Assembly: GCA_963720265.1 (NCBI GenBank)
Contig: CAVRET010000001.1
Location: forward strand, 389,916 to 453,915
Source of the DNA: an uncultured bacterium
GTDB lineage: Bacteria > Patescibacteriota > Saccharimonadia > UBA4664
Length of the DNA stretch: 64,000 nucleotides
Reading direction: 5' to 3'
Shown: positions 56,467 through 64,000 of the stretch, piece by piece
Layout of the letters: each line of letters begins with the position of its first letter
Position numbering within the stretch: the stretch's first letter is position 1
The notes under the pieces: model-generated
Databases searched by the model: none
Told to the model about the DNA's origin: nothing
The model's input: the letters and a program-made list of their open reading frames with translations, nothing else
Position numbers and translations under genes: made by a program

Positions 56467-56766
56467 TTACCCTAGTAATGCTGCTACGCCGTGCTCGTGG
56501 ACGATATTCAACAACTTTAGGGCCGCCCCGTCTGGGTGTGTTTTCCCACTCTCCCACTTTTGAGCCGTTGTAACGCCGACGTTCAGCACCTTAGCCCAAA
56601 CACTCCGGCTAAGCTTTAGCTCTTCGCGTAGCTGCCTAATTTGCCCAGGGGTTAGCTCCCGAACGGTTGGTAAAGCCAGCGCTTCAAGCTTGTCCATGGT
56701 AATTTTATCTACCTTGGCATCGTTTGCCGCTTCAAGTACCACTTCCATGACAGTCTTGCCGTCCAT
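56467..56766 (-). CDS. higA: HigA-type antitoxin (XRE-family HTH DNA-binding protein)
   Basis: 99 aa; HTH LTPGQIRQLREELKLSRSVWAKVLNVGVTTAQKWESG; lies immediately downstream of the toxin gene (toxin-first order typical of higBA). Confidence 0.75.
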   Translation of the reverse strand: MDGKTVMEVVLEAANDAKVDKITMDKLEALALPTVRELTPGQIRQLREELKLSRSVWAKVLNVGVTTAQKWESGKTHPDGAALKLLNIVHEHGVAALLG

Positions 56767-56769
56767 TGT

Positions 56770-57150
56770 CTATTCCTTTCCTTTCGTTATCTCTACAATT
56801 GCCTTCGTTTCAAGACGAGGGGTTAAGTCAGCATCGCTTAAATTAAGATAGAATTTCCCAAGCTCCTTTAGTGCAGTTTTCTCTCTTTGGGTAATGTTGT
56901 CGCGATCACTTTTCTCAAATGCGTAGAGGAAGAAAGTTCTCCTGTGGGCTGAGTAAGCGAGTAACGTTCTTACGCTTCCGCTCTTACCTCTACCTTTCGT
57001 TGCTATGCGCTTCTTGAAAAGGTTCCCGCCTAAGTTTGCTTCGACGTTGCCCTTCTCGATGTCATTAACCGCTTCGCACAATAGCCCATCAGTTAATTCA
57101 TTGCTTTGGGCCCAGCTATAAAAACGTTTGATCGCGAATACTCTCATCAT
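56770..57150 (-). CDS. higB: HigB-type RelE/ParE-superfamily mRNA interferase toxin
   Basis: 126 aa; KRIATKGRGKSGSVRTLLAY...FFLYAFEKSDRDNITQREKTALKEL typical of the HigB/YgjN family. Confidence 0.75.
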   Translation of the reverse strand: MMRVFAIKRFYSWAQSNELTDGLLCEAVNDIEKGNVEANLGGNLFKKRIATKGRGKSGSVRTLLAYSAHRRTFFLYAFEKSDRDNITQREKTALKELGKFYLNLSDADLTPRLETKAIVEITKGKE

Positions 57151-57729: not shown

Positions 57730-58228
57730 GTGCTGGGCGCTATTTATCATAAAGGATACATGCACCCGCTTGAAGAGTGGATACTTTTGGCGCTAGGTGC
57801 AGTCGCGACAGTGTCAGTTAGTGTTGTCTTTGCGTGGTTATTGCAAAAGATTCGAAATCAACGCGCACACTCTCAGTATGCCGACGGCTTGGCCTTTGAA
57901 AAATACATATGCTATTCTTCCCCGTCTCGGATTTACTGGCGTAAAGCTAACCGAGCGCTACGATTTGGGCGTCGACATTATTGCACAGAAGGACAGTGTT
58001 GTTTGGGGCATACAAGTTAAACATTATCAGGGGTTAGTTAGGGCTTCTGCTGTGCGGCAAGTGGTTACGGCGTTGCGGACGTACGGATGCGATCGCGTCA
58101 TGGTGGTAACTAGCGGTAGGTTTAGCCGTCCTGCGATTCAGCTTGCCTCAAGCAATAGATGTGTTTTAGTTAGCGGTCACGAGCTGGCCCGGTGGATTTC
58201 AACGTCGCGCACAAAAGCTAAACGATAG
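57730..58228 (+). pseudogene. Mrr-like type IV restriction endonuclease (N-terminal TM + Mrr_cat domain), frame broken near 57905-57925
   Basis: Frame 1: MLGAIYHKGYMHPLEEWILLALGAVATVSVSVVFAWLL...ADGLAFEKYI. Frame 3 continues ...AILPRLGFTGVKLTERYDLGVDIIAQKDSVVWGIQVKHYQGLVRASAVRQVV...VMVVTSGRFS (Mrr catalytic core D..(x)n..VK). 499 nt = 166 codons + 1; the break is in or near a C4 run. Confidence 0.5.
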
Positions 58229-58250: not shown

Positions 58251-59198
58251 TTATTTTACTGTTATCTTCTTAAAGCCTAGTTCCAGGGTATATCGGGCCA
58301 GCCTTCTAATGAGTCCTTTCAGCAGGTTCGGGATAAATGAATCGACCATCCATAATGAGACGATGGCAAACAAAACAACGAGGTAATTGTTTTTTATGAT
58401 ATCGATTAACACTCTAGGTTTGTAGTTCAGAATACTAAAGGTGAAATAGGTGAAAAGTACAGCACTGCAGTAGAAAATTATTGACCATCTACTGGCTTGG
58501 TATTCAAATATCCTAAGTTTTTGACCTTCAGATTTTTCGGGAGAATTCTGACCTTCATAAGATGCTCCTGATTGGTCGCTCATCACTATCTTCTCCTGAT
58601 CAAAGAATGGGTCGTAGTCGTACTTTGTTCCAGAGACAACAAAAAGGCATGCCGTAAGTACAGCTACGGTGGCTTTTGAAACAGTCCTCAGAAACCTGCG
58701 CCAAAACCACAGTTTTATCCTGAGGCAGAATCCTAAGAATGGTCTTGTGGTCTTTAGATGCAGATTATAAGCATACGTGAGTACATCAAGACCCGTGACA
58801 GCCTTGTCATTTTTGAATATTTCATTTTGTTCAGGATCGTAGACATAGTCATCTGTCACATTGATATCGATGGGATCATGGGCGGATGTTTCCTCGCCCG
58901 TTCTGATCTTGATTCCGCCGGCGTGCATGACCCCGAATGTTGCATCAACGAAGACCGGGTATAATCCATCCCTTTTATTATCAACCAATGTGACTCTAAT
59001 AAGGCTGGCTTCTTTACGGCCCTTGCGGCTATGCCTAACACTAAAACCAACCTGATCATCCAGATACGGGATAAAGTCTGAGAACTCACTCCCAGCAATA
59101 TCAAAGAGGTCCAGAAAATCAGATTTTATTTTCTTATCGACTAGTACCTTCATGATTCGATTATCCGTTTCACTATTTGTCGTGATCAATAAGTACAC
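58251..59198 (-). CDS. hypothetical two-domain protein: roughly 170-aa soluble N-domain plus C-terminal multi-TM region; lowest GC in window (about 40%)
   Basis: 315-aa ORF; hydrophobic helices near VAVLTACLFVVSG, WSIIFYCSAVLFTYFTFSIL and LVVLFAIVSLWMV; no family recognised. Confidence 0.55.
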   Translation of the reverse strand: MYLLITTNSETDNRIMKVLVDKKIKSDFLDLFDIAGSEFSDFIPYLDDQVGFSVRHSRKGRKEASLIRVTLVDNKRDGLYPVFVDATFGVMHAGGIKIRTGEETSAHDPIDINVTDDYVYDPEQNEIFKNDKAVTGLDVLTYAYNLHLKTTRPFLGFCLRIKLWFWRRFLRTVSKATVAVLTACLFVVSGTKYDYDPFFDQEKIVMSDQSGASYEGQNSPEKSEGQKLRIFEYQASRWSIIFYCSAVLFTYFTFSILNYKPRVLIDIIKNNYLVVLFAIVSLWMVDSFIPNLLKGLIRRLARYTLELGFKKITVK

Positions 59199-59451
59199 AT
59201 GGCTGGGCTGGCTTGCACTCTCTAAGGCGAAGGATTGTTTATTTTACTCTTTTGCGAGCAAGTTTTACCAGCTCTGCGTCGCGTTCGTAAGCACGCAGCC
59301 GACCGCTCAGGTAACCGAGACGATGATGAATTCCGTCGCTCATCAGTCGCCAGTTAGTGTCAGCTAGGGCCTCCTCGACCATCTTCTTGAGTACATTTCG
59401 GCTATCATGGCCGCTACTGCCGTCCGCCCGGAGTGACAGCTACAATGGGGA

Positions 59452-59929
59452 CATGTCAGAACGTGACGTATTTGATCCCGACAAGCGCAGAGCTGTGATG
59501 TCTTCAATCAAGAGCAAAGGGTCTGAGGCAGAGAGTATAGTATTTGCGTACTTACGTGGCGAACGCATCTATTACCAGAAGCACTACCCGAAAGCCCCAG
59601 GATCGCCCGATATCGCGTTACCTCGAAAGCGCATCGCAGTATTTATTGATGGTGACTTCTGGCATGGCCATGACTACGAAACCCGCGTAAAGCCGCGACT
59701 TTACAAAGAATGGTGGCGCAAGAAAATTTCAGAGAATATGGACAGGGATGTGCGCCAGTACGCCGAACTTGAGGCAAGGGGTTGGAAGGTGCTGCGGGTA
59801 TGGGAGAGCGACATTTTGCGGAAGCGCACCAGGCCGGCAGCACTTGAGCTGGTGAAGAAGTTTTTGCGTGGTCAAGCGTCGTCTTTAGCCGACTCCGATG
59901 CTTCAAAGGCTGATTCTGGAACCGATTGA
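59452..59929 (+). CDS. vsr: very-short-patch repair endonuclease
   Basis: Start MSERDVFDPDKRRAVMSSIKSKGSEAESIVFAYLRGERIYYQKHYPKAPGSPDIALPRKRIAVFIDGDFWHGH closely parallels E. coli Vsr (SK.TKPE..VR..L...G.RYR......PG.PDIV....K..IFVHGCFWH). Confidence 0.85.
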
Positions 59930-60510
59930 CCTCTCTCCAATAATTCAATTATTTTTGCTTCAGTATATAGGCCGGGTGGCAACTTATCCGCCCATGCGCG
60001 GCCGGGATGGAGTGTATCCCAAGATGATTTCTTCTGACCGCTTCGACCACCGCCGGGAGCGTGATTTCCGAAGCCGTCGATGCTGACATTCCATAAAGGC
60101 TTGAATCTGTTAATCATTAGGGACTCGGCCAGTGGAATCCAGATATCATCAACCACTAAATATCGGCAATAAAAATCTTCCTCACTGAGGTTTTTCGCAG
60201 ATGTAACAGACCCAAGATGTTGCTTAATCCGTGAGTAGAGAGAGCTTCCGGTAGTGTCGATCTCGAGCCCTTTTCGTGCACCTTTTGGCACAGCCTTCCC
60301 AACGTAAATTGGCGTGGCATCGTCGCCGGTCAGGTCTTTGGTCGAGATGTGCTTGTAAGCTGGAAAATCTCCGGCGTAGTAGATTGCGTATATCCCCGCA
60401 CCACTAAATGGGCGGAGCTGGGTCATTTTCTGCGGTGGCTCAGCGAGAAGCTGGCTAACGACGCTTTCGGCTAGGTTCGTTTTCTCAAGCGGATTATAGG
60501 GCTGGTTCAT
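59872..60510 (-). CDS. Eco29kI-family GIY-YIG type II restriction endonuclease
   Basis: 212 aa; GIY (Y41)...28 aa...YVG (Y69); R94-x3-H98; E129-x11-N141. The spacings match the published Eco29kI catalytic residues Y49/Y76/R104/H108/E142/N154. Confidence 0.7.
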   Translation of the reverse strand: MNQPYNPLEKTNLAESVVSQLLAEPPQKMTQLRPFSGAGIYAIYYAGDFPAYKHISTKDLTGDDATPIYVGKAVPKGARKGLEIDTTGSSLYSRIKQHLGSVTSAKNLSEEDFYCRYLVVDDIWIPLAESLMINRFKPLWNVSIDGFGNHAPGGGRSGQKKSSWDTLHPGRAWADKLPPGLYTEAKIIELLERGQSVPESAFEASESAKDDA

Positions 60511-61660
60511 TAACTAGCAGGTCCTTTACGGATGACGCGACGGCTCGCGCCAAGCCAACGGGTACCGCATTTCCGAGCTGTCTCATACTTTCGGTCCATG
60601 AGACAGGAAAGATGTACTCGTCAGGGAAGGATTGGATACGCGCACTTTCACGCACGGTGAAGTAGCGTACCGAGCCGTTCGGTAATGCTAGCATATTTTC
60701 CCCTCCCGGAACACCATGGCCGCCGGCCTTGATCGTCTTGGAGGGCTCATCATATTCGCTGCCGGTGTGTCCTGGGTAAATCTTCGCGCCAGGATTGAAC
60801 TTGTGATTAAGCACTTTGTTGTGCTTGTGTTGCGGGTGCGGCAGGTCTGAGATCGCGTCACGCACGGTTCGCCAAGCCTTGCCAGCTCCGGTAATCGTCT
60901 CGCGATCAGCGGCTTCGGCGATAACTTCACGAGTGTACGGCATTACTCCCCTATCTTTCAGAGGTACTTTGTGTCGATCCCAGTATTCACCTGTGAGCCA
61001 TTTGTCTCTCAAGAGTGCCGCGCGGGAGTGTGTTGGGCGCGGGAAACTCCATTCGAGATTCAAGTCATCTCGGAAACCAACAAATATCACACGTTCGCGC
61101 TTTTGGGGTACACCATAATTCGCGGCATTCAAAAGTTGCGTAACAACCTTGTACTCAAGTGTCTTGCCCGCCGTAAAGTATCGCTCGAGCCGCGAGAGGT
61201 GATCTTCCCAACTTTCATTATCTCGCCTGCCTAGACTTGGGTACGAAAGCTGTAGTTCAATATACTTGAAGTAACTTCGAAATGACGCCCTAGTCAGGCC
61301 TTTAACGTTTTCAAATATGAAGGCCTTAGGCCGCAGCTCCCGGACGGCTCGGACGGATTCCGGAAACATGTCGCGAGTGTCATTGTACGCTCCGTGTTTA
61401 CCGCCCAGCGAGAATGGCTGGCAGGGCGGGCCCCCGCTTAGCAGGTCCAACTCGCCGGAATAAACTGAGTAGTCGATGTCCCGGACATCCGCCTCTACGA
61501 TGTCCCAGCTGGTAATCGGGTGTACTTTCTCGGCCTGGTTGTGGCGAAGTGTGACACATGACTCACGATCCCACTCGATAAAGGTTTCCGTTTGAAAGCC
61601 CACAGAATCAATGCCCATAGAGAGCCCACCAGCACCACCAAAAAGCTCAATACATCTCAC
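60494..61660 (-). CDS. DNA (cytosine-5)-methyltransferase
   Basis: 388 aa; motif I LFGGAGG; motif IV GGPPCQPFS; motif VI ENV; C-terminal target-recognition domain; 17-bp overlap with the restriction-enzyme gene. Confidence 0.9.
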   Translation of the reverse strand: MRCIELFGGAGGLSMGIDSVGFQTETFIEWDRESCVTLRHNQAEKVHPITSWDIVEADVRDIDYSVYSGELDLLSGGPPCQPFSLGGKHGAYNDTRDMFPESVRAVRELRPKAFIFENVKGLTRASFRSYFKYIELQLSYPSLGRRDNESWEDHLSRLERYFTAGKTLEYKVVTQLLNAANYGVPQKRERVIFVGFRDDLNLEWSFPRPTHSRAALLRDKWLTGEYWDRHKVPLKDRGVMPYTREVIAEAADRETITGAGKAWRTVRDAISDLPHPQHKHNKVLNHKFNPGAKIYPGHTGSEYDEPSKTIKAGGHGVPGGENMLALPNGSVRYFTVRESARIQSFPDEYIFPVSWTESMRQLGNAVPVGLARAVASSVKDLLVNEPAL

Positions 61661-61866
61661 AGCATCCCTCCAGTGTTATCTACAATATAGCATAACCGAA
61701 TGAAAGCCGTACTACAATAGAATAAAGACGAGCCTTTCGGCCCGTTAAGCGATAGCCAAAATAGATTGATAACTTCTGGTACCTGCAAGTACTAAAAAAT
61801 TCCACCTCACAGCGGCCATCACCCTAGTTATAGTGTCTTCCCGATTTAATCACAAGCATTATGGTG

Positions 61867-63876
61867 TTAGGTAACGGCAGCCTGTTCGGGCTGTAAATCA
61901 CTTTTCTCGAGATGATTTTCATTATTAATTGTTTTGAGTAAACTTTCTGATTTTGCGGTCAACTCATCCCGCAGGTATTGGTGATTCAACTCAAAACGCT
62001 CCAGCACTTGTGACCAGGTCAAGGCATAGCCTCGGAAGTTGTCCCCCGCTGTGAAGATCAAATCCGGGTCGCCAGTTACTTTAAGGTTGTCTTTTAGGCC
62101 CTGGATGTAACCATCGGTAGCGTAGTCGTTGCCAATGACGTAGAACTTCCAGTCGCTATCAGGACTATTAAACCTATCTTCTTTGAAGATAAGTTGTTGA
62201 TAGCTGAACAATTGGTCGAAGTCCTTTTTGCTCAAGTTTTTTGAGGCTCTTTTAAGCTCGGTGACCAAATGTTCAAATTTGTGACCATTCTTCCTCTTGC
62301 GGCAGGCGAAGATATCCATCTCTTTGTTCTTATCTTGATGTTCGATCCGTGGTTTTGATTTCGCAGGTGTCTCCCTAAACTCGAGAATTCGCCGGAGCGC
62401 CTCTTCGAAGTCTGGCTCTTCTGCTGTAATCAGTTGATACTGTTCGTCAACAATCCAAAGCTCACTCTCGACTATCCGTTGAATGTCTTTTTCTTTTGAG
62501 GTCTGCTCAAAATCAAAACAGATCCGTTTAAGGTTTTCGTACACTTCGTACCTGTCGCTAACTAATTGTGCCAGTTTTGTCATCCCATCTAACGAGACCT
62601 TGTCGAGCAACCTGACGAGCCTACTTCTATCTCCCTCTTCCATCTCGAGTAGGCTACCAATCACTGTCATTAAATCATCTCTGGCTTTTCCGCTCGCAAT
62701 CATTGAAGACAACAGCCGTCCGAAGATAACGCGCTGTTCGTTGCCAAGGTTTGCGAAAATCCTGGGCTCGATCTTAAAGAGCTCTTCAATGAGCTCTTTA
62801 GTGTATTCAGCCTGTAGGCGCTGAATAGGCGTAGCGCCTTCTTCCAGCCCCAAGATTGCCCCTTCCTTGGCGTATTCGTTCGATGTCTTTTTGGAAAGGT
62901 CTTCAAGAAAAGGCTTGCGTTTATCGCGCAAGAACTTCACAACAACTTCGACTAAGAATTCGTACGCTTGCGACTCCCGGCCGGCGCCAAACTCTAGTGC
63001 GGTTTGCTCCGGTTTATTTTCGCCGAAATCAAAATCATTGAATAGACCACTCCTGATGTAGACAGAGTGGTAGAATTTATCCCCCTTGTTATTCAGCTTG
63101 GTGGTTTCTTTAAACAGTTCAATACTGGACGAGTTCAGATAATAAAAACTGGAGTATTCGGGATGGGGCAAGTGACCCCATTGAACAAAAACTACCTCAA
63201 ATTCATTGCCTGTGGGCTCGTGCATGACCGTAAAGCTTGAGCTGTCGGTAGCAATAGACTTATCGGCCAATACGCAATCTGCATCTATTATTGCCGACCC
63301 AACAGTGATGCTTTTTGTGGGATCAAGGACTAGGAACCAACCAAATTCGCGCTTCACGTAAGTTTCCAAAGATTGCGCTAAAGCATCAGCGCTTGTCTCC
63401 ATGGAGATTTCAGTGAATTCGACAGTGGTTCCTGTATTCGCGGATGACACAGTCGGATCGGTGGGATCGTAATCTTCAAGGTTGCTCGCATTAACTGTTA
63501 TGTTGTATTGCAATTTGTTGGATTCAGACTCGTAAATCGTGTGCCAAACGGCTTGTCCTGCAAACTTGATAAATGCGAATCGTCCGTAGCCATTGTTGCC
63601 ATGGGGAAGCGAGTGATGTTTTTCCTTGGTTTTCTCTGATTCGTAAAAAGGTCGAAACTTATTGCGGAGTTGGTCTGACGGAATGCCGAAGCCATTGTCG
63701 GTGACCTTTATCGCTCCTATTGCACCGAGCTCATTCAGGGTTTCAATCTCAACCTTAATGTGGGTAGCGCCTGCATCGAACCCGTTCCAGCAGTACTCGG
63801 CCAAGGCGTCGTGATAGTGTAGGCCACTAAGAACCTTCTGGATTCCCTGGGTTTTAATCTGGATTTTAGCCATATG
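61867..63876 (-). CDS. GHKL-family ATPase (HATPase_c_3-type N-domain) with large uncharacterised C-terminal region
   Basis: ORF 61867..63957; start MAKIQIKTQG at 63876 preferred; N-box ALAEYCWNGFDAGAT; G1 box VTDNGFGIP; roughly 500 aa of unrecognised helical sequence follows. Confidence 0.65.
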   Translation of the reverse strand, partial: HMAKIQIKTQGIQKVLSGLHYHDALAEYCWNGFDAGATHIKVEIETLNELGAIGAIKVTDNGFGIPSDQLRNKFRPFYESEKTKEKHHSLPHGNNGYGRFAFIKFAGQAVWHTIYESESNKLQYNITVNASNLEDYDPTDPTVSSANTGTTVEFTEISMETSADALAQSLETYVKREFGWFLVLDPTKSITVGSAIIDADCVLADKSIATDSSSFTVMHEPTGNEFEVVFVQWGHLPHPEYSSFYYLNSSSIELFKETTKLNNKGDKFYHSVYIRSGLFNDFDFGENKPEQTALEFGAGRESQAYEFLVEVVVKFLRDKRKPFLEDLSKKTSNEYAKEGAILGLEEGATPIQRLQAEYTKELIEELFKIEPRIFANLGNEQRVIFGRLLSSMIASGKARDDLMTVIGSLLEMEEGDRSRLVRLLDKVSLDGMTKLAQLVSDRYEVYENLKRICFDFEQTSKEKDIQRIVESELWIVDEQYQLITAEEPDFEEALRRILEFRETPAKSKPRIEHQDKNKEMDIFACRKRKNGHKFEHLVTELKRASKNLSKKDFDQLFSYQQLIFKEDRFNSPDSDWKFYVIGNDYATDGYIQGLKDNLKVTGDPDLIFTAGDNFRGYALTWSQVLERFELNHQYLRDELTAKSESLLKTINNENHLEKSDLQPEQAAVT

Positions 63877-64000
63877 GTAGCTCGCTTTAGATTGATTGTA
63901 TGGTATCTGTTCGCATTTGCAAGATGTCAGGGGCTTGTCTCTCCCCTCTCTTCCCATGGTAAGGGCAGCACGTGATGCGTCAAGGTCGTTCCAACCAGGT

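Follow-up and report, generated by a model that had tools for sequence, protein, structure and literature searches.

A GHKL ATPase fused to a PD-(D/E)xK nuclease in a low-GC island of an uncultured Saccharimonadia bacterium: a distinct clade of a known kind of protein and a likely stand-alone defence gene

Introduction

Prokaryotic proteins that join a GHKL ATPase to a nuclease have been described under several names, and we compare them here with one such gene at the end of a 64,000-nucleotide (nt) stretch of DNA from an uncultured Saccharimonadia bacterium (contig CAVRET010000001.1 of assembly GCA_963720265.1, positions 389,916 to 453,915; hereafter the window). The paraMORC3 proteins were defined by Iyer, Abhiman and Aravind in 2008 (Biol Direct 3:8) by a GHKL domain, an S5 domain and a restriction endonuclease (RE)-fold domain with an E-D-ExK signature; their distribution is wide but sporadic, with a prevalence in proteobacteria and bacteroidetes, and they are often stand-alone, with some copies in restriction-modification (R-M) neighbourhoods and with MORC/paraMORC genes linked to cytosine methyltransferases (MTases) and Vsr (PMC2292703). 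Orlowski and Bujnicki, also in 2008, reported GHKL-containing putative Type II restriction endonucleases (REases) in REBASE, including R.VeiORF1182P, which has GHKL plus PD-(D/E)xK, and the characterised enzyme R.HgiDII, whose N-terminal GHKL domain is followed by a C-terminal domain that was unassigned at that time (PMC2441816). A 2023 preprint by Gu et al. grouped the combination of a GHKL fold, an Hsp90/MORC-like middle and a Shedu nuclease as Shedu type 1D (here also I-D). Most recently, Adams et al. 2025 (Nat Microbiol) reported that VcSduA of the V. cholerae WASA lineage alone shields E. coli from Drexlerviridae, that this protection is seen at every multiplicity of infection tested and is abolished by E27A (ATPase) and K557A (nuclease), that the protein is encoded beside a GmrSD-like Type IV system, and that such proteins had previously been annotated as paraMORC3 (PMC12137116).

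The window gene is a new member, in a distinct clade, of this known kind (the paraMORC3/GHKL-Shedu type I-D/HgiDII-like GHKL nucleases). Our preferred reading, to which we give a probability of about 0.6, is that its product is an ATP-driven DNA nuclease that acts alone as a single polypeptide and belongs to the paraMORC3/GHKL-Shedu (type 1D)/HgiDII-like sort, a reading that takes in a clamp mechanism and independence from the other genes of its island.

An intact gene for a four-module protein

On the minus strand an uninterrupted open reading frame (ORF) spans 61867-63957. We set its start codon at the second ATG (63873; MAKIQIK...), because the aligned homologues (the position is common to 31 of 31) and the public gene calls (the identical protein P0001 is also 668 residues long) agree there; this gives a complete coding sequence of 668 amino acids (aa) plus stop at 61867..63873, which encodes a GHKL ATPase fused to a PD-(D/E)xK nuclease. 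The frame remains open as far as the window edge, and the two other minus-strand frames have stops at ~63980 and ~63927. With 231 database proteins matching the window protein at E <= 1e-3 (best non-self E 7e-226) and 237 matches at E <= 1e-30 in a scan of 1.84 billion representatives (841 at E <= 1e-10), this is a real gene and not a chance ORF.

The architecture was read from an alignment of 32 relatives at 33-52% identity (A1), from a second alignment of 61 C-terminal domains taken from genome loci (A2) and from a full-length AlphaFold2 (AF2) model built from A1, with a mean predicted local distance difference test (pLDDT) score of 79.9. Conservation in A1 extends over the whole length of the protein, beyond the ATPase, and the model is made up of four modules: a GHKL domain, a beta-rich domain, an all-helical region, and an alpha/beta domain with a long terminal helix.

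The first module is a GHKL (Bergerat-fold) ATPase domain (aa 1-155, 63409..63873, on the minus strand like all parts of the gene given below). The Pfam model HATPase_c_3 covers aa 21-131 with E 4e-16 and a score of 59.7 bits (cut-off 25), and Foldseek of the AF2 model against PDB returned Hsp90/TRAP1, MutL LN40, MLH1, GyrB, topoisomerase VI-B and MORC3 at E ~1e-10; a PDB sequence search with the whole protein gave only matches of ~45 residues at the ATP site. Motif I, the N-box, occupies aa 22-36 (63766..63810; ALAEYCWNGFDAGAT corresponds to aa 23-37, nt 63763-63807), with E26, N30 and D33 invariant in A1 and E26 the predicted catalytic base of the ATPase. Motif II, the G1 box DNGFGIP, follows at aa 59-65 (63679..63699; D59, G61 and G63 invariant), motif III, the G2 box HGNNGYGR, at aa 91-98 (63580..63603; H91, G92, N94, G95, G97 and R98 invariant), and motif IV is G148-T149 (63427..63432), likewise invariant in A1. 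Ahead of motif III lies a predicted ATP lid with invariant F73, P75, S79 and K81. Motifs I-IV, a curated model above its threshold and a GHKL fold together place the window protein in the GHKL superfamily.

The second module is an S5/transducer-like beta-rich domain (aa ~160-285, 63019..63396) modelled at pLDDT >90, and the hhalign alignment to VcSduA reaches its end at aa ~285. We assign it as the S5/transducer module because Foldseek aligned ~316 columns to the two-domain N-terminal GHKL plus transducer/S5 fragments of MutL LN40 and MLH1. Within it, the conserved loop T258-L-N261-N-K263-G-D265 (63079-63096) contains K263, a candidate gamma-phosphate sensor lysine. The third module, a family-specific all-helical region (aa 300-455, 62509..62976; AF2 helices at pLDDT 54-89) with conserved R319, P370, Q380 and R441, is predicted to be an arm or clamp that links ATPase and nuclease.

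The fourth module is a PD-(D/E)xK restriction-endonuclease-fold domain (aa 460-620, 62014..62496). The invariant residues of the C-terminal third in A1, with which A2 agrees (W473, E477, E486, D520, E539-x-K541, Q554 and Y558), make up the textbook E-D-ExK signature of PD-(D/E)xK nucleases. The helix motif W473-IVD-E477-QY (62437..62457), with E477 and E486 invariant, supplies the first acidic element and aligns with NLWLIDE of VcSduA; E518-M-D520-I-F (62308..62322) carries the invariant, predicted catalytic D520 in both alignments and falls on KEPDLL of VcSduA; E539-L-K541 (62251..62259) is the invariant ExK predicted to be catalytic, with K541 opposite VcSduA K557; and the conserved helix after it (Q554...Y558, both invariant, 62200..62214) aligns with the Q..Y of VcSduA. 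The domain also matches AspBHI, Upx, MspJI, NucC, McrC, Card1 and Can2, lower in the ranking.

Curated models reach this domain below threshold. Pfam HSDR_N_2 gave sub-threshold matches in 54 of the 61 relatives (best 8e-6) and Pfam SduA_C (DUF4263) in 11 of them (best 2.2e-4), and the PADLOC SduA models matched nine of the 61 weakly. The window C-terminus itself has no match to SduA_C/DUF4263 (PF14082) at E <= 1, PADLOC on the whole window protein returned only PDC-S11 at chance level, and a PDB sequence search with the C-terminal profile found no match. The SduA_C miss is uninformative and the test low-powered, because VcSduA itself has no Pfam match at E <= 0.1 (nor an NCBIfam match at E <= 0.001). 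The 'DUF4263' label of VcSduA is not reproducible by HMMER-level models.

A preliminary description of the window, made from its letters, had recognised a GHKL-ATPase gene of ~670 aa of the HATPase_c_3/MORC-like type, and the intact 668-aa gene with all GHKL motifs (ALAEYCWNGFDAGAT and DNGFGIP among them), the Pfam match at E 4e-16 and the Foldseek matches to MutL and MORC3 uphold it on both counts. Its remark that the remaining ~500 residues resemble nothing recognisable holds at default Pfam thresholds only; the region resolves into S5/transducer-like, helical and PD-(D/E)xK parts, and the nuclease fold for which it suggested looking is there, with E477/E486, D520 and E539-x-K541 invariant.

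Relationship to VcSduA and to the BbrUII/HgiDII enzymes

For comparison with VcSduA, the VcSduA-model hits were taken as the N-terminal 399-500 residues given in preprint Table 5, and full-length VcSduA (P0169/P0170, 673 aa) was obtained via database search. By hhalign, the window family and the VcSduA family align with 93.4% probability (E 2.4e-7) over 460 collinear columns. The N-terminal comparison gave 98.3% (E 1.5e-14) and set E26 opposite VcSduA E27, the GHKL and S5 domains together gave 94.9%, and the two nucleases gave 87.6% (E 3.5e-6), against 2.7% for the control comparison of our nuclease with the HsdR N-terminal nuclease. Towards the C-terminus the correspondences are W-I-x-x-E with W-L-I-D-E, KEMDIF with KEPDLL, and VELK(541) with IEIK(557), such that E26 and K541 of the window protein align with the two VcSduA residues, E27 and K557, whose mutation abolishes defence (PMC12137116). 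The listed VcSduA-model hits contain none of the tested accessions of our clade, and no Brevibacillus, P. syringae or F. johnsoniae.

Among curated hidden Markov models (HMMs) the nearest is that of the BbrUII/HgiDII family of restriction enzymes (NCBIfam NF050001, 659 positions), which aligns with the GHKL end of the window protein at E 1.4e-12 and with the nuclease end of the closest homologue, P0002 (aa 411-628 on model positions 435-634); its cut-off of 550 bits was reached neither by the window protein (47 bits) nor by its relatives (49-66 bits). The alignment of NF050001 with the PD-(D/E)xK region of P0002 implies that R.HgiDII carries this same nuclease at its C-terminus, in the domain left 'unassigned' in 2008.

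Judged by these profiles, the window protein is related, distantly but over its full length, to VcSduA and to the R.HgiDII-type enzymes. It fits the paraMORC3 definition feature by feature and belongs to a separate clade. We infer that the clade is paraMORC3 from its architecture, motifs and distribution.

Distribution of the family

Every full-length match in the database scan is ~650-700 aa long and lies in a single matching stretch, and the architecture is therefore fixed; the 231 matches in the indexed database are almost all unnamed or called "ATP-binding protein". In a pattern-limited scan with a single genome for each species (185,579 genomes), at least 289 relatives were confirmed. In bacteria these come from Bacillota, Bacteroidota, Pseudomonadota, Chloroflexota, Patescibacteria, Acidobacteriota, Verrucomicrobiota and Desulfobacterota, and in archaea from Methanosarcinaceae and Woesearchaeota, a patchy spread that is typical of mobile genes. 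Relatives are also carried on 39 plasmid records, on 31 IMG/VR viral or prophage contigs and by two Pasteurella phages.

Neighbourhoods of the relatives

ORFs were called in the loci of relatives and the neighbours were clustered, with 59 loci left after removal of near-duplicates. Across these 59 non-redundant loci no neighbour family is universal and no conserved partner gene was found. The commonest neighbours are type I R-M subunits (8 HsdR, 7 HsdS and 3 HsdM among 99 immediate neighbours), and HsdR with HsdS or HsdM occurs within the locus in 10 of the 59 (~17%). In the tightest loci the GHKL-nuclease gene lies between hsdR and hsdS with gaps of 1-4 nt or overlaps of 11-17 nt, and in some type I loci DUF4062 and Schlafen/AlbA_2 genes come before hsdM. 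Bacteroidota locus L011 (7183-16924) encodes in order HsdR, the GHKL-nuclease, HsdS, DUF4062, a Schlafen/AlbA_2+HATPase_c_4 protein and HsdM, as do L018, L037, L055, L059 and others; Firmicutes and Patescibacteria loci show the same type I embedding with a different HsdR family. The occurrence of two HsdR families in embedded loci suggests repeated capture or functional coupling. About 80% of the relatives have no R-M neighbour, and an m5C (5-methylcytosine) MTase like the one in the window was found near only one of the 59 loci, and an Eco29kI-type REase, Vsr or Mrr near none.

Outside the type I loci the company is varied. The P. koreensis homologue has RES-Xre, DUF488/DuOB and Abi_2 genes as neighbours, and the Brevibacillus homologue a prophage lysogeny module and an HD dGTPase-like gene; neither has an MTase among the called genes within 8 kb. 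The DUF488 and DuOB pair lies upstream of the P. koreensis homologue (L002, 6043-7262), and its DUF488 protein matches the PADLOC candidate PDC-M45B at 1e-49. A serine recombinase and RhuM adjoin another relative, P0005 lies in a prophage-like region, and P0004 lies beside a type III R-M system with PIN and Fic. Next to the closest homologue, P0002 (53% identity; L120, 5315-8965), a 552-aa RVT_1 reverse transcriptase stands 27 nt upstream on the same strand, with a serine recombinase (resolvase) nearby; the reverse transcriptase may be a defence-related neighbour, or a partner in that lineage only. On the Psychrobacter plasmid pP62BP1 (L087, 3679-7878), a distant homologue (24% identity) lies by annotated Drt2, dcm and an LlaMI-family REase. 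This plasmid mirrors the window's pairing of an m5C R-M system with a GHKL-nuclease, a pairing that is rare in closer relatives.

The low-GC island at the window end

Over its final ~8.5 kb (55.5-64 kb) the window has a guanine-cytosine (GC) content of 47.6%, against 56.4% elsewhere, and the GHKL-nuclease gene itself stands at 45.7%. This low-GC island is packed with conflict genes and runs on past the window end; no tRNA gene was found in the window. Downstream of the GHKL-nuclease gene, after a spacer of 206 nt, comes a co-directional m5C MTase gene (60494-61660, minus strand), which is overlapped by 17 nt by the gene of an Eco29kI-family GIY-YIG REase (59872-60510, minus strand), followed by a convergent Vsr gene (59357-59929, plus strand; 143 aa in the public gene call). 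Beyond these lie a 315-aa ORF (58251-59198, minus strand; 300 aa in the public call), a small Mrr_cat nuclease gene (57797-58228, plus strand) and a RelE/MqsA-like toxin-antitoxin pair (56467-57150, minus strand). At 41% GC, the 315-aa ORF, which separates the Mrr-like gene from Vsr, has the lowest value of any gene in the island; no Pfam, PADLOC or NCBIfam model matched it, and the C-terminal half of its product appears hydrophobic.

The Eco29kI-like R-M module needs no GHKL gene to be complete. Because this module recurs next to almost no relative, we regard the adjacent R-M genes and Vsr as independent neighbours. A functional operon with the module was considered and rejected, as the association is not conserved and as terminator-like hairpins lie between the genes. 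These are two hairpins with T tracts (61802-61815 and 61728-61745, minus strand; together 61728..61815) in the spacer between the GHKL and MTase genes, and on the other side of the gene a sigma-70-like promoter match (TTGCAA-16-TACAAT, 63895..63922, minus strand) lies 22 nt 5' of the start codon. Both kinds of signal are weak, their counts being no higher than expected in shuffled sequence, and they would fit, weakly, a GHKL gene that forms a separate transcription unit. A Logan contig, another assembly of this locus (L001), breaks off 54 nt before the start codon, which may point to a repeat or a variable junction close by on the upstream side; two exact-match scans of metagenome contigs for sequence beyond position 64000 gave no match.

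The preliminary description had placed the gene immediately upstream of the MTase, as the spacer and orientation bear out, and had implied a link to the adjacent R-M module, which the near-absence of like genes by the relatives (m5C MTase by 1/59, Eco29kI-type REase and Vsr by 0/59) speaks against. It had also proposed a candidate component of an undescribed defence system, with partners upstream. The defence part of that proposal keeps its footing in the low-GC defence/toxin-antitoxin island and in relatives on plasmids, in prophages and at R-M loci. The notion of a component with upstream partners loses ground to the lack of a conserved partner across the 59 relatives and to VcSduA, which works as a single gene, and 'undescribed' has to be given up in view of paraMORC3 in 2008 (PMC2292703), the GHKL REases in 2008 (PMC2441816), Shedu 1D in 2023 and VcSduA in 2025 (PMC12137116).

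Proposed function and alternative explanations

We infer both function and mechanism here: the window gene is likely a stand-alone defence gene. By analogy with MutL, MORC, topoisomerase VI-B and VcSduA, the GHKL-nuclease would act as a homodimer, in which ATP binding would shut the N-terminal GHKL gates while the transducer domains and helical arms clamp DNA. This conformational switch would then allow the C-terminal nucleases to cleave the enclosed foreign DNA, whether phage or plasmid, and ATP hydrolysis would reset the clamp. The window copy would be one cargo gene of a low-GC defence/toxin-antitoxin island, functionally independent of the Eco29kI-like R-M genes and Vsr.

Several observations weigh against this reading. 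The window protein matches neither Pfam SduA_C nor any PADLOC Shedu model, and a BLASTP comparison of the window protein with VcSduA falls short of significance (E 0.024, ~16-20% identity), so that the link between them is one of profile comparison only. The helical middle shows no detectable similarity to the VcSduA middle (0.1% by hhalign), and because this region is unrelated, regulation may differ from that of VcSduA. The nearest curated HMM, BbrUII/HgiDII, is a bona fide Type II REase family and favours an R-M-type reading; ~17% of the relatives lie within type I R-M operons, in translational coupling; and a partner specific to this genome may lie upstream of position 64000, beyond the window.

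An R-M-type reading would make the protein the REase of an R-M system, a GHKL Type II or ATP-dependent enzyme like HgiDII or BbrUII that cuts a specific unmethylated site and needs an MTase, adjacent or elsewhere. NF050001 is the best NCBIfam match and both ends of the family are matched, the window gene is 206 nt upstream of an m5C MTase gene, and the distant pP62BP1 homologue is also by dcm and an REase gene. R.HgiDII has an m5C MTase as its partner. It is a characterised GHKL-containing REase (PMC2441816), and linkage of MORC/paraMORC genes to cytosine MTases and Vsr has been noted before (PMC2292703). Yet scores of 47-66 bits are tenfold under the 550 cut-off, the adjacent MTase is already paired with the Eco29kI-family REase whose gene overlaps its own by 17 nt, an m5C MTase lies near one of 59 relatives and Vsr near none, and many relatives have no MTase among the called genes within 8 kb, which would be lethal for a classical REase. 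We consider this explanation unlikely.

The type I loci allow another departure from our reading, namely a mechanistically separate ATP-gated clamp-nuclease that has been captured repeatedly between hsdR and hsdS and works with or guards type I and other R-M systems, rather than being self-sufficient in the manner of Shedu. The clade may be separate in this sense because its helical middle differs from that of VcSduA and because PADLOC v2, SduA_C and the tested species of the VcSduA list all miss it. Such a system might fire when restriction is blocked, or might use Hsd-mediated methylation for self-recognition, but we think it quite improbable.

More narrowly, the protein could be a guard or back-up nuclease coupled to R-M in the manner of PrrC, kept latent by an R-M complex until a phage blocks restriction and so sets it free. 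The 10 of 59 loci inside type I R-M, the tightest between hsdR and hsdS, would suit such a role, as would the two HsdR families, which suggest repeated capture, and the position of the window copy, P0004 (type III) and the Psychrobacter copy, all likewise next to R-M genes. That ~80% of the relatives have no R-M neighbour and that VcSduA works alone in E. coli (PMC12137116) tell against it, and since defence genes of many kinds commonly insert at R-M loci, adjacency may reflect island structure only; we hold this to be very unlikely.

A modification-dependent (Type IV-like) restriction enzyme directed against modified phage DNA would explain the absence of a cognate MTase, and a stand-alone nuclease plus NTPase without a partner MTase agrees with that, as does the GmrSD-like Type IV system beside VcSduA (PMC12137116). 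Domain searches found no recognisable modified-base reader (SRA, EVE, YTH or DUF262), however, and the MspJI and AspBHI matches rank under generic PD-(D/E)xK matches. T1-like Drexlerviridae are not known to carry hypermodified DNA, which counts against such an enzyme. It is these T1-like Drexlerviridae that VcSduA restricts (PMC12137116), and we give the Type IV-like explanation very little credence. Finally, the preliminary description had itself named a housekeeping GHKL family (MutL, GyrB, Hsp90 or a histidine kinase) with conserved non-defence synteny as the outcome that would overturn its proposal. A housekeeping protein of repair or chromosome maintenance (MutL-, GyrB-, Hsp90- or MORC-like, or a histidine kinase), for which weak matches at the N-terminus to models of MutL and topoisomerase VI-B might speak, is effectively refuted by model scores (matches limited to ~50-150 residues of the ATP-binding site and far below cut-offs; MutL TIGR00585 at 27 bits against 180, only over aa 30-76, with no MutL C-terminal domain) and by distribution (the patchy occurrence of at least 289 relatives, plasmid and prophage carriage, the low-GC island, synteny that is not conserved), so that homology does not place the protein in MutL, GyrB, Hsp90 or the histidine kinases.

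If the assignment as a stand-alone GHKL-nuclease is right, the gene is ordinary defence-island cargo and should be annotated as a GHKL ATPase-PD-(D/E)xK nuclease (paraMORC3/GHKL-Shedu-like) rather than as an "ATP-binding protein". The clade is missed by PADLOC v2 and by the Pfam Shedu model and is only remotely related to one validated member, and for this reason testing it would show if the GHKL-nuclease is a general stand-alone defence module; copies inside type I R-M operons would show if embedding has functional meaning. Further work might be rewarded on two points only, the recurrent hsdR/hsdS embedding and the invisibility to current defence-finder models; the interest of the locus is otherwise modest.

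Comparison with known systems

With MutL, MORC and topoisomerase VI-B the window protein shares the fold of the N-terminal ~300 residues and the ATP-binding motifs. It lacks the MutL C-terminal endonuclease/dimerisation domain, the MORC coiled-coil or CW domain and a Top6A partner, and unlike these proteins it has a fused PD-(D/E)xK nuclease and a mobile, patchy distribution.

The BbrUII/HgiDII enzymes are closer, with a similar length (659 positions in the model) and with weak matches to both the GHKL end and the nuclease end. They differ in that the MTase in the window has its own Eco29kI-type REase and in that most relatives have no MTase neighbour.

VcSduA, like the window protein, is a single protein of nearly the same length (673 against 668 aa) in which the GHKL plus S5 part and the PD-(D/E)xK part are collinear with ours, and both genes lie in mobile defence islands beside other restriction systems. 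The paraMORC3 description fits in architecture, with a GHKL domain with intact ATP motifs followed by S5 and then by an RE-fold domain with E-D-ExK, and in distribution, with a sporadic bacterial and archaeal spread, many proteobacteria and bacteroidetes, many stand-alone copies and some in R-M neighbourhoods. Taken together, our analysis joins the R.HgiDII-type REases, paraMORC3 and GHKL-Shedu in one architectural group.

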